A stretch of DNA of 64,000 nucleotides from Octopus vulgaris (Eukaryota), in contig OX597823.1 of the NCBI GenBank assembly GCA_951406725.2, forward strand, positions 87,296,001 through 87,360,000, written 5' to 3'. Position numbers and translations under genes: made by a program. Of the stretch, positions 22,701 to 25,700 are shown piece by piece. Below the pieces are notes generated by a model. That model made no database searches and was not told where the DNA came from. It worked only from the letters and a program-made list of their open reading frames with translations. Numbering within the stretch: the stretch's first letter is position 1; the number at the start of each line of letters is the position of its first letter.

Positions 22701-25700
22701 TCGGGGTCAATAAATTAAGTACCAGTTGCGTACTGGGGTCGATCTAATCGACTGCCCCCACTCCCTAAAATTTCGGGCCTTGTGCCTAGAGTAGAAAAGA
22801 ATAAATATTAGAAAATCCCTGTTCGTAAACTTTTAGAAATTCTGTTGTCCTTTGTGGTTGATATAATCGGTTTAATCTACTCTCTAATTTTGGGTTTTCT
22901 GTTTTTTATCTCTTACTTGTGTGAATCATTAGACTGCGGCCATTCTGTCGCACCGCCTTTAAAGTGTTTAGCCGAATAAATCGACCTCAGGACTTATTTT
23001 GCCAGCCTGGTACTTCTTCTATTGTTTCTTATTGCCGAACCGTGAATTTACGAGGACGTAAACACACGAACACCTGTTCAAGTATAGAAGGAGACATACG
23101 CAAATACGCACACACACACAGACACACAGACACACACACACACACACACACACACACACACACACACACACAAATGCACACGCACACATATGTATCTATA
23201 TGTACAACAGACTTCCTTCAGTTTCCATCTACGAAATCCACTGACAAGGCTTTGGTCGGATTGTGGCTATAGTAGAAGATATTTTTTCCAACGTGTCACA
23301 TAGTAAGACTGAACTCGGAACCATATGGTTAAGAATCGAGCATCTTACTCCATAGCCACGGCTGCGTCTATGAGCGAAAGCTGTATTTTTAGTGAAAGTA
23401 TAAAAATATATCTGAGAAGACACGTATCAGCCTTTCAAAACCATTCAAAGCTGTTAAGTTAAGCATTTATTATACGGTGTAACACGATTTATGTTCTTTG
23501 TTAGAAACAGTTATTTCCAATTAACTTTCCCCAAGAAAGTATGAAAAATGTCTCGCATTTCCTTCAAACAATGTTTTTGTAAGATTTATTCAAAACCTTA
23601 TAATCTCCTTTAACACATGACTACGATGCTCCGCTATTATTCCTGCTCATGATCAGAGATGTACAGCTTGAGTGCAACAAAGGGACATGCTTCAGTGGAT
23701 AAGATCAAGCAACTCACAACGCAGTCTGTGGTTTTGAGCAGAATATTTGCTATAACGATATATCTGCTTCAGCCACTCAATGCTGAAACTGTCTGAAAAG
23801 TAATGGTAAATGGGTGAGTTTCAAAAACAAAGTTTGAAGGGAATAGTAGTCATCTGTTTTTGTTTCTAGACAGAAGCAAATATAATATAACACTTACTAA
23901 CCAAAGACAAACAAAATCGAAAAATGTAATTTTGTAATACAGTGTTATTGGAATTGTGTCAGTGACCAGGTTGCAGTTAGTGCGACGAAAATTTTGATAC
24001 TTAATAATGGTTTAAATGAATTTAATAGATTTTGTGTGTTGATGATTGAATAAAGGCACATCGTATTTAATTTCTAATTCAATATTAGTAAATATTTAAT
24101 ATAATTACCTCTTTGGGGTTCGAAATCAAACAGACACTGATTAATTGAGATATTAGGAAGATACCACCCAGCATTAAGAAACACTTCGGAACTCGTGCAA
24201 GAAGATCTTTCTGGTTAAAATAGCTGGAAAACAAAATAAAACAAACTTGTAATCAGGGCCGGATTGAGATCCATACAAGACCTAACCATTTAGAAAGATC
24301 TTGGTACACAAATATATACATGTATACACACGCGCACGCACGCACGCACACACACATACACATACACACACACACACACACACATTTATATATATATATA
24401 TGTATATATATATATATATATATATATATATATATATATATATATATATATATATATATAAAGGAATACAAAAAATGGGACAAGAGCACAAAACATCCAG
24501 ACAGATAATACAAAAGAGGGATAAGAAAAACCACGGACGGATCATTCGAAGTTTTCTTTCCTCAGTCAAGTTCCAGATTATCTTTGCAATTTCGGCTGGT
24601 TATACTCGAGAGTGCTCCAATCCGGTCTGCCCCAAGGAAAAACTAATCTAAGAGCACTAGATTCCTTGAAAGAAAGCAGCGAATGTATACGAAAACAGGG
24701 GTCGAAAAATAAAACGGAGAAATAGTACACAAATAATTCCATATTTAAGAGATGAGGAATTATGTAAATTACATTTACATTATTTGCATTCGACGGATAT
24801 TTGTCCTCATCTTTTTGTTGTTAACACAATGTTTCGGCTGATATACCCTCCAAGCCTTCTTCAGGTGTCTTGGGGAATTTCTAACATGGGTTCTCATTCC
24901 TAAGGTATTTTTCGATGTTGCTGTTGTTGTTACTATTGTTGTTATTATTAATTATTATTATTCAGGTCACTGCTTGGAATTGAACTCAGAATCTTGGGGT
25001 TATAGCCTGCGCTCTTAACCATGTGCAATTTATGGAGTGAATTTTGGGGCTTATAAATCTAATATTTTTCTATCCTTCCTTAATACCGGTTCCCATATGC
25101 TGTTCATATCTGCACTCGGTCTGCTTAGGAGGTTGTTGTTTCCTAGCATATGTTCTGCTTCTTTTAGTTTTCGTATTTTCCAGTGGTATGCTCTGTCTAT
25201 TATTTTAACTTCATCCCACAGGGAGAGGTGGTCTCCATTTTTCCATACATGATCAGCTATACCCGTTTATCAATATCTCCTCGCGTCACAGCTTTGCGGT
25301 GTTCGTCAACCGTTATTTTGAGAGGATGGCATGTTTCGCCTTTGTATAATTTACCACAGCTGCACGGGATGTAGTATACGGTCTTTGTTCATATTCTCTT
25401 TGTTGTGTGTATCACAATCGCTTATATTCTTTGTGGTCGTTTCTAATATCCATACTGTCAGCTAGTTAAATTGCTTACGAATGTATGTATGGAAAAAATA
25501 GCGCTACATTTGATGTGACGCTATCACAAATTCTCTTGAGCCAACGGGAGTTTTTATATTTGGACATTCCAACCCGCGTAAAATAGGAACGATTAAGGTA
25601 ATCACAGTGGATTTGAACTCAGAATATAAAGTGACGGAATAAATAATTGCTCTACCAATTCTGTTTGTTTGTATCCTTATCTACGGGTCTTAATAAAGTT

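Follow-up and report, generated by a model that had tools for sequence, protein, structure and literature searches.

Pairing between nucleotides 3 and 8 of the hammerhead core was previously known from structures, from double mutants and, in nature, from the mild change to U3-A8. Nucleotide 8 is held by pairing with nucleotide 3 and its 2'-OH is the proposed acid, G12 being the base; a G8C change lowers activity about 10^5-fold and C3G partly restores it (available parts of PMC8495972 and PMC6155905). The octopus DNA analysed here, a stretch of 64 kb termed the window, contains at positions 23956-24000 a hammerhead-like motif whose core carries G3 and C8. This locus raises the question of whether an inverted 3-8 pair has become established in a natural ribozyme and, if so, in which kind of genetic element.

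Results

A hammerhead fold with an inverted 3-8 pair

Both strands of the window were scanned with a descriptor that left positions 3 and 8 free, which returned three matches: a canonical hammerhead (core at 16580), the motif at 23956-24000 and a further G3-C8 motif at 18930 on the minus strand (Table 1). The same kind of descriptor applied to 60 block-wise shuffles gave 0.27 matches per window, none with G3-C8 or C3-G8. Stem I of the window motif comprises 23956-23961 paired with 23995-24000 (6 pairs, one G-U) and stem II comprises 23970-23975 paired with 23981-23986 (6 pairs, one G-U), in which G10.1-C11.1 is kept. The GAAA segment extends from 23987 to 23990 and is followed by AU, U16.1 (23993) and U17 (23994), after which the RNA is predicted to be cut. 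The hammerhead letters U4, G5, A6, A9, G12, A13 and A14, the A15.1-U16.1 pair and H17 are all present, while C3 and G8 of the CUGANGA consensus are replaced by G3 and C8 with Watson-Crick pairing retained. Letters, stems and core were read identically in a preliminary description of this DNA, which had likened the motif to the one at 16575; the latter is indeed a canonical hammerhead, but it derives from another repeat family. Two further copies of that canonical family are located at 19223-19367 and 24775-24905 (minus), one of which has a broken stem II, and the 24775-24905 copy (minus) follows an endonuclease-like frame remnant at 25019-25266.

Stem III of the window motif would be formable only between two copies, a dimer need that would follow from the available part of PMC4209133. 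It would consist of an A-U palindrome, with 4 pairs between two copies in the family to which the window motif belongs (family A) and 6 pairs in that of the 18930 motif (family B). The window motif strand folds into stems I and II with a z-score of -2.17, and 8 of 200 shuffles were equally good; the 18930 motif strand, the stems of which are different, folds likewise with a z-score of -2.25. In the monomer fold that was predicted, G3 is paired with U17, and the lowest-energy prediction for the dimer differs from the hammerhead dimer; both outcomes speak against a cleaving ribozyme. Rfam covariance models revealed no hammerhead match within 23900-24060 at E values up to 10. They gave none for four relatives either, three of them C3-G8, suggesting that the models generally miss such minimal forms.

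Table 1. Coordinates of the hammerhead motifs, repeats and likely host exons in the 64 kb window.
Feature	Position	Strand	Basis
Family A (old) hammerhead fold of minimal type I, core with G3-C8	23956..24000	+	descriptor scan, folding
Core strand G3-U4-G5-A6-C7-C8-A9; G3 = 23962, C8 = 23967	23962..23968	+	sequence
Extra G between A9 and G10.1	23969..23969	+	G in 47/47 copies
Stem II, 6 pairs, 5-nt loop	23970..23986	+	fold; compensatory changes among families
G12-A13-A14-A15.1, self-complementary AU, U16.1, U17	23987..23994	+	sequence
Whole family A fragment, truncated Penelope-like element end	23949..24053	+	genome comparison
Unrelated dispersed repeat adjoining the family A fragment	23461..23950	.	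genome comparison
Family B (young) element end, ends in (TA)n run	18745..18950	-	genome comparison
Second G3-C8 hammerhead, G3 at 18930, predicted cut after 18894	18887-18937	-	descriptor scan
Canonical C3-G8 minimal hammerhead, different repeat family	16575..16622	+	comparison only
Likely host exon encoding 34 hydrophobic aa, bounded by AG and GT	24109..24210	-	
Further likely host exons	21803-22005 and 15510-15719	-	

Genomic surroundings of the window motif

The window copy is solitary and cut short at both sides, leaving a fragment of about 105 bases (23949..24053). Its identity is 77-86% with the best-matching copies in the genome and about 73% with family B. The dispersed repeat at 23461..23950 was considered as a part of the hammerhead element and rejected, its other copies having no hammerhead after them. 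The motif lies antisense in the intron between the likely exons 24109-24210 and 21803-22005, while the 18930 copy would be sense-oriented in a later intron of the same likely minus-strand gene. This is likely a tandem-duplicated gene for a multi-pass membrane protein, which we take to be transporter-like; a Pfam search with exons 15510-15719, 21803-22005 and 24109-24210 gave no family name. Paralogous exons were observed near 52002-52211 and in locus L094. Its age, its fragmentary state and its antisense position within a likely host intron make the window copy a probable fossil, an inert truncated insertion that has kept every core letter.

Two families carry G3-C8

The genome searched comprises 2.8 Gb in 227 contigs, and the best protein match that bears a name comes from an octopus. 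Family A is represented by 40 scored matches, which apart from the window copy itself are 77-86% identical, and the genomic copies of family B, to which the 18930 motif belongs, are 91-98% identical; over 90 bases the two families are about 73% alike. G3 was found in 40, C8 in 44 and U17 in 44 of 47 homologous family A copies, a sample biased by retrieval through likeness to family A copies and including one family B-like row. Among 105 young family B copies, G3 is present in 103 and C8 in 103. Both of these related families, the old A and the young B, are fixed for G3-C8. The motif is far above background, an exact 18-base G3-C8 context spanning both families occurring 8,072 times against 0 in the control. 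The loose GTGANCA...GAAA pattern gave 7,377 matches against 2,012 in the control, counted on forward rows, reverse rows having been counted more than once.

The catalytic letters G5, A6, G12, A13, A14, A15.1, U16.1 and H17 are kept in both families. Differences between A and B involve the free position 7, an outer stem I pair, which is changed on both sides, and the stem III palindrome, which is longer in B and still palindromic. Among 44 family B copies anchored upstream of the motif, sites with a majority below 85% are located in loop 2 and the flanks, and none in the core or stems. No alternative core-strand letter reaches 5% in contigs of four sequencing runs from three organisms.

Solitary copies, tandem copies and inverted pairs all occur, for the most part embedded in (TA)n runs. 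Locus L093:2860-3700 (C27, 8.303 Mb) displays four family B ends arranged in tandem, which repeat every ~232 bases with (TA)n between them, a retrozyme-like array that could supply a dimer partner. A 5.2-kb tandem duplication on C28 (L091-L092, C28:25.05-25.07 Mb), with three family B ends per unit, was considered as the element and rejected, since it is a host gene duplication carrying the motif. The duplicated gene is presumably glycosyltransferase-like.

The motif belongs to a Penelope-like element

In 1,044 longer copies the motif is preceded by a shared stretch with a branch-point-like sequence and an acceptor-like end, the latter ~22 bases ahead of G3. The contigs of the sequencing runs, a kind of data in which ends and expression do not show, displayed neither a splice joint nor a pile-up of ends. 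The family B protein frame comprises a reverse transcriptase (RT) plus a GIY-YIG-type domain at the C terminus, as identified by motifs in P0001 against Craig Fig. S2. A Pfam search gave no match for this frame and, for a homologue, a weak RT match only. A search with the protein alone retrieved family B copies of which the best are 91-100% identical, many without stops, and in 25 of 30 loci picked in this way the G3-C8 motif lies some 1 kb past the stop codon that closes the RT/GIY-YIG frame, on the same strand. Of the other five, two display the G3-G8 form alone, within an inverted arm, and three lack the motif. One C3-G8 match, in locus L208, falls outside the element.

The full-length copy L217 carries the motif at 177 and again at 4438, with a frame between them that contains one stop and one shift; a likely start codon is located about 90 bases after the core of the upstream motif. 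Overall, family B presents direct terminal repeats with the hammerhead, tandem and inverted truncated copies, and a tail. Its copies end at two places ~60 bases apart, which resembles the tail of Penelope-like elements as described in the available part of PMC11167929. Family A displayed no reading frame, and an upstream walk from its copies gave about 300 shared bases only; its connection with a Penelope-like element is suggested by homology to family B. A frame remnant in locus L072 (45-50% identical) was tried as the family A frame and rejected, as no hammerhead lies behind it.

The motif had been proposed to represent an overlooked class of retroelement ribozymes. The retroelement is borne out by the RT and GIY-YIG frame of the young sister family B, but the motif, as a variant in the core, is to be placed with the minimal type I hammerheads already described for Penelope-like elements, where U3-A8 is on record (PMC4209133, available part), rather than in a class of its own. 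The idea that Naiad elements, which are said to lack hammerheads, carry G3-C8 was rejected for this family: Naiad endonucleases are N-terminal, with no canonical hammerhead in the element, and the family B endonuclease is C-terminal. Five motif strings were absent from the Craig 2021 consensus files.

Natural covariation at positions 3 and 8

The genome also contains a young sister family, with 57% protein identity and an open frame of 1,310 aa, in which C3-G8 occurs together with C9 at the same place. Its hammerhead was located at L235:5695-5750 (C12) and also in L236-L238, the frame being open in several copies. Locus L243 combines U3-A8 with C9, and L242:4951-5003 displays C3-G8 with an inverted 15.1-16.1 pair (U15.1-A16.1), the palindrome being kept; core variants seem to be frequent in this element clade. 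The flanking letters of the G3-C8 context occur with C3-G8 instead in 271 copies of another family, which present a compensatory stem II change and an imperfect stem I. These share their 3' tail with the sister family and only the ribozyme region with families A and B.

Metagenome relatives were found at 37 loci. Among the 18 inspected downstream of the frame, 5 carry C3-G8, 2 U3-A8 and 1 a degenerate form, while 10 display no hammerhead or too little sequence; G3-C8 was observed in none of these 18, and no relative was found in viral contigs. In an alignment of 14 motifs, which were hand-picked for fold and are kin to each other, the 3-8 pair is CG in 8, GC in 4 (from two related families), UA in 2 and unpaired in 0, a score reached by 0 of 500 shuffles, and 94.6% of stem II cells are paired. 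Such natural covariation argues for a conserved ribozyme fold, and the occurrence of C3-G8 or U3-A8 at the same place in related elements agrees with the earlier suggestion of a retroelement motif with a compensated 3-8 pair. A quick protein tree joins family B to the C3-G8 sister family; its two U3-A8 rows stand apart, one nested beside C3-G8 rows. From this tree, built without a clade test, C3-G8 would be the ancestral state.

Unpaired forms and copy ends

Forms with an unpaired 3-8 position total about 304 (8,647 minus 8,072 minus 271). About 252 of these are G3-G8 (3.1% of the G3-C8 count), a roughly eightfold excess over the C-to-G rate of 0.3-0.4% in the flanks, and about 52 are C3-C8, which is near background. 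G3-G8 occurs in several loop variants and, among the first 100 matches listed, in both arms of 6 inverted pairs; the corresponding figure for G3-C8 is 11 inverted pairs among the first 100 matches listed. The presence of G3-G8 in several loop types and in both inverted arms indicates that much of it predates or accompanies insertion, either because unpaired source copies transposed or because C8 was miscopied at the RT step. These copies speak against an essential ribozyme role. In a sample anchored on the motif, no family B 5' end falls at the predicted cut site, whereas 42 short family B pieces begin 16-25 bases ahead of G3, where the acceptor-like site lies; splicing or a halt of the RT may account for these starts.

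Discussion

Proposed mechanism

We consider it likely, from sequence comparison, that the motif is a Penelope-like terminal-repeat hammerhead with G3-C8 that still acts as a weak, two-copy, protein-assisted self-cutting RNA. Where one transcript carries two copies, their self-complementary stem III halves would pair with each other. G12 would act as the base, and nucleotide 8, kept in place by the 3-8 pair irrespective of the letters in it, would provide its 2'-OH as the acid. Cleavage would then occur after U17, weakly and probably aided by protein. It would be slow or conditional, given that inserted copies extend across the cut site and hence come from uncut RNA. The C3G/G8C double mutant of the Anolis Poseidon element PAc partly regains cleavage, for which the element protein is required (available part of PMC11167929). 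For a G3-C8 variant, activity was lower with C17 than with G17, the data not being shown in that study (PMC3884650, available part); U17 avoids a G3-C17 mispair here, though it is common in these elements anyway. It is also conceivable, although rather doubtful, that the inverted pair is a selected brake, slow cutting by G3-C8 leaving most RNA whole and position 8 being a mutation hot spot where RT meets the folded core.

Alternative explanations

A fortuitous fit of AT-rich DNA to a loose pattern would agree with the modest folding z-score of the window motif and the blank Rfam result. It is extremely improbable in view of the lack of G3-C8 matches in shuffles and the fixed place in a retroelement, and it is refuted by the thousands of homologous copies. 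The number of copies by itself attests no more than descent from few masters, and a neutral accident, in which two changes in a master element with an irrelevant ribozyme were amplified by hitch-hiking, would be compatible with G3-C8 being seen in one lineage only and with a conservation of old copies that is no higher than expected from neutral decay and query bias. We regard this as quite improbable: two exactly complementary transversions are needed, the swap is kept across families ~27% diverged in which loop, position 7 and flanks have changed, and U3-A8 rows occur at two places of the quick protein tree.

Somewhat unlikely, though the least so of these alternatives, is that the fold was kept and cutting lost, the motif serving as a structural signal for protein, splicing or translation with a 3-8 pair needed for folding only. 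The mobilised G3-G8 forms, the 5' ends placed before the core and not at the cut site, and the sister family with C9 in place of A9 all fit such a signal. Catalysis is moreover unneeded for insertion in vitro, as ribozyme-dead mutants of another Penelope-like element (Anolis) still insert normally (PMC11167929, available part). Against it, all catalytic letters are retained in families A and B, and the 3-8 pair belongs to the active conformation (available part of PMC8495972). A cleaving, if weak, hammerhead is the reading that we prefer.

Relation to known hammerheads and Penelope-like elements

The motif resembles the minimal type I hammerheads that Cervera and de la Pena 2014 (PMC4209133, available part) described for Penelope-like elements, sharing with them the presence in both terminal repeats, the extra nucleotide after position 9, G10.1-C11.1, a stem II of 5-6 pairs, a palindromic stem III and mostly solitary truncated copies. 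It differs in the core, GUGANCA here against the CUGANGAH consensus there, and the inserted letter here is G. The table of 56 representatives in the available part of that study includes C3-G8, two U3-A8 rows and one U3-G8 row, with no G3-C8. U3-A8 of Schistosoma Cercyon elements (about 1,300 matches, PMC4209133, same part) and the U3-A8 natural variants in the available part of Perreault 2011 (PMC3088659) are likewise natural compensatory changes at 3-8. Two transitions lead to U3-A8, which retains pyrimidine 3 and purine 8, whereas G3-C8 requires two transversions, by which the pair is inverted. Engineered C3G/G8C hammerheads, including PAc (Frangieh 2024, PMC11167929, available part), share the core letters and the kind of element and display partial rescue; there the change is laboratory-made, whereas here G3-C8 is natural and fixed in a recently active family.

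The RT frame shares only a linker resemblance with Nematis-type elements (Craig 2021), and its long insert between RT motifs 3 and 4 is absent from the nematode rows of Craig Fig. S1 (PMC8557442, available part). The hammerhead search of that study used cuganga strings, according to the same part of the text, and a word search of the available part of the octopus repeat annotation (PMC13282606) revealed no mention of ribozymes. No report of a natural G3-C8 hammerhead was found in the literature searched, which was covered in part, so that an earlier mention is possible. At least one published hammerhead survey reportedly allowed any 3-8 pair.

Biological meaning

Taken on its sequence, G3-C8 is a genuine variation in the core of a ribozyme type already known, compensated and present throughout the family, and one that standard searches would miss; activity is likely. 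Search descriptors are best written with positions 3 and 8 free but paired, and, were the inverted pair a selected brake, swapped cores would be a blind spot in all CUGANGA-based counts of ribozymes in animal genomes. An inverted pair fixed in a family of >8,000 copies with near-intact frames would be a natural experiment for the 3-8 pair, and one genome offers C3-G8, C3-G8 with C9, G3-C8 and G3-G8 in related elements for side-by-side assays. The finding touches the open question of what the hammerhead does for Penelope-like elements. Mobilised G3-G8 copies suggest that one round of transposition may not need the ribozyme fold; if the lineage kept the pair through two transversions, the fold would be under selection.
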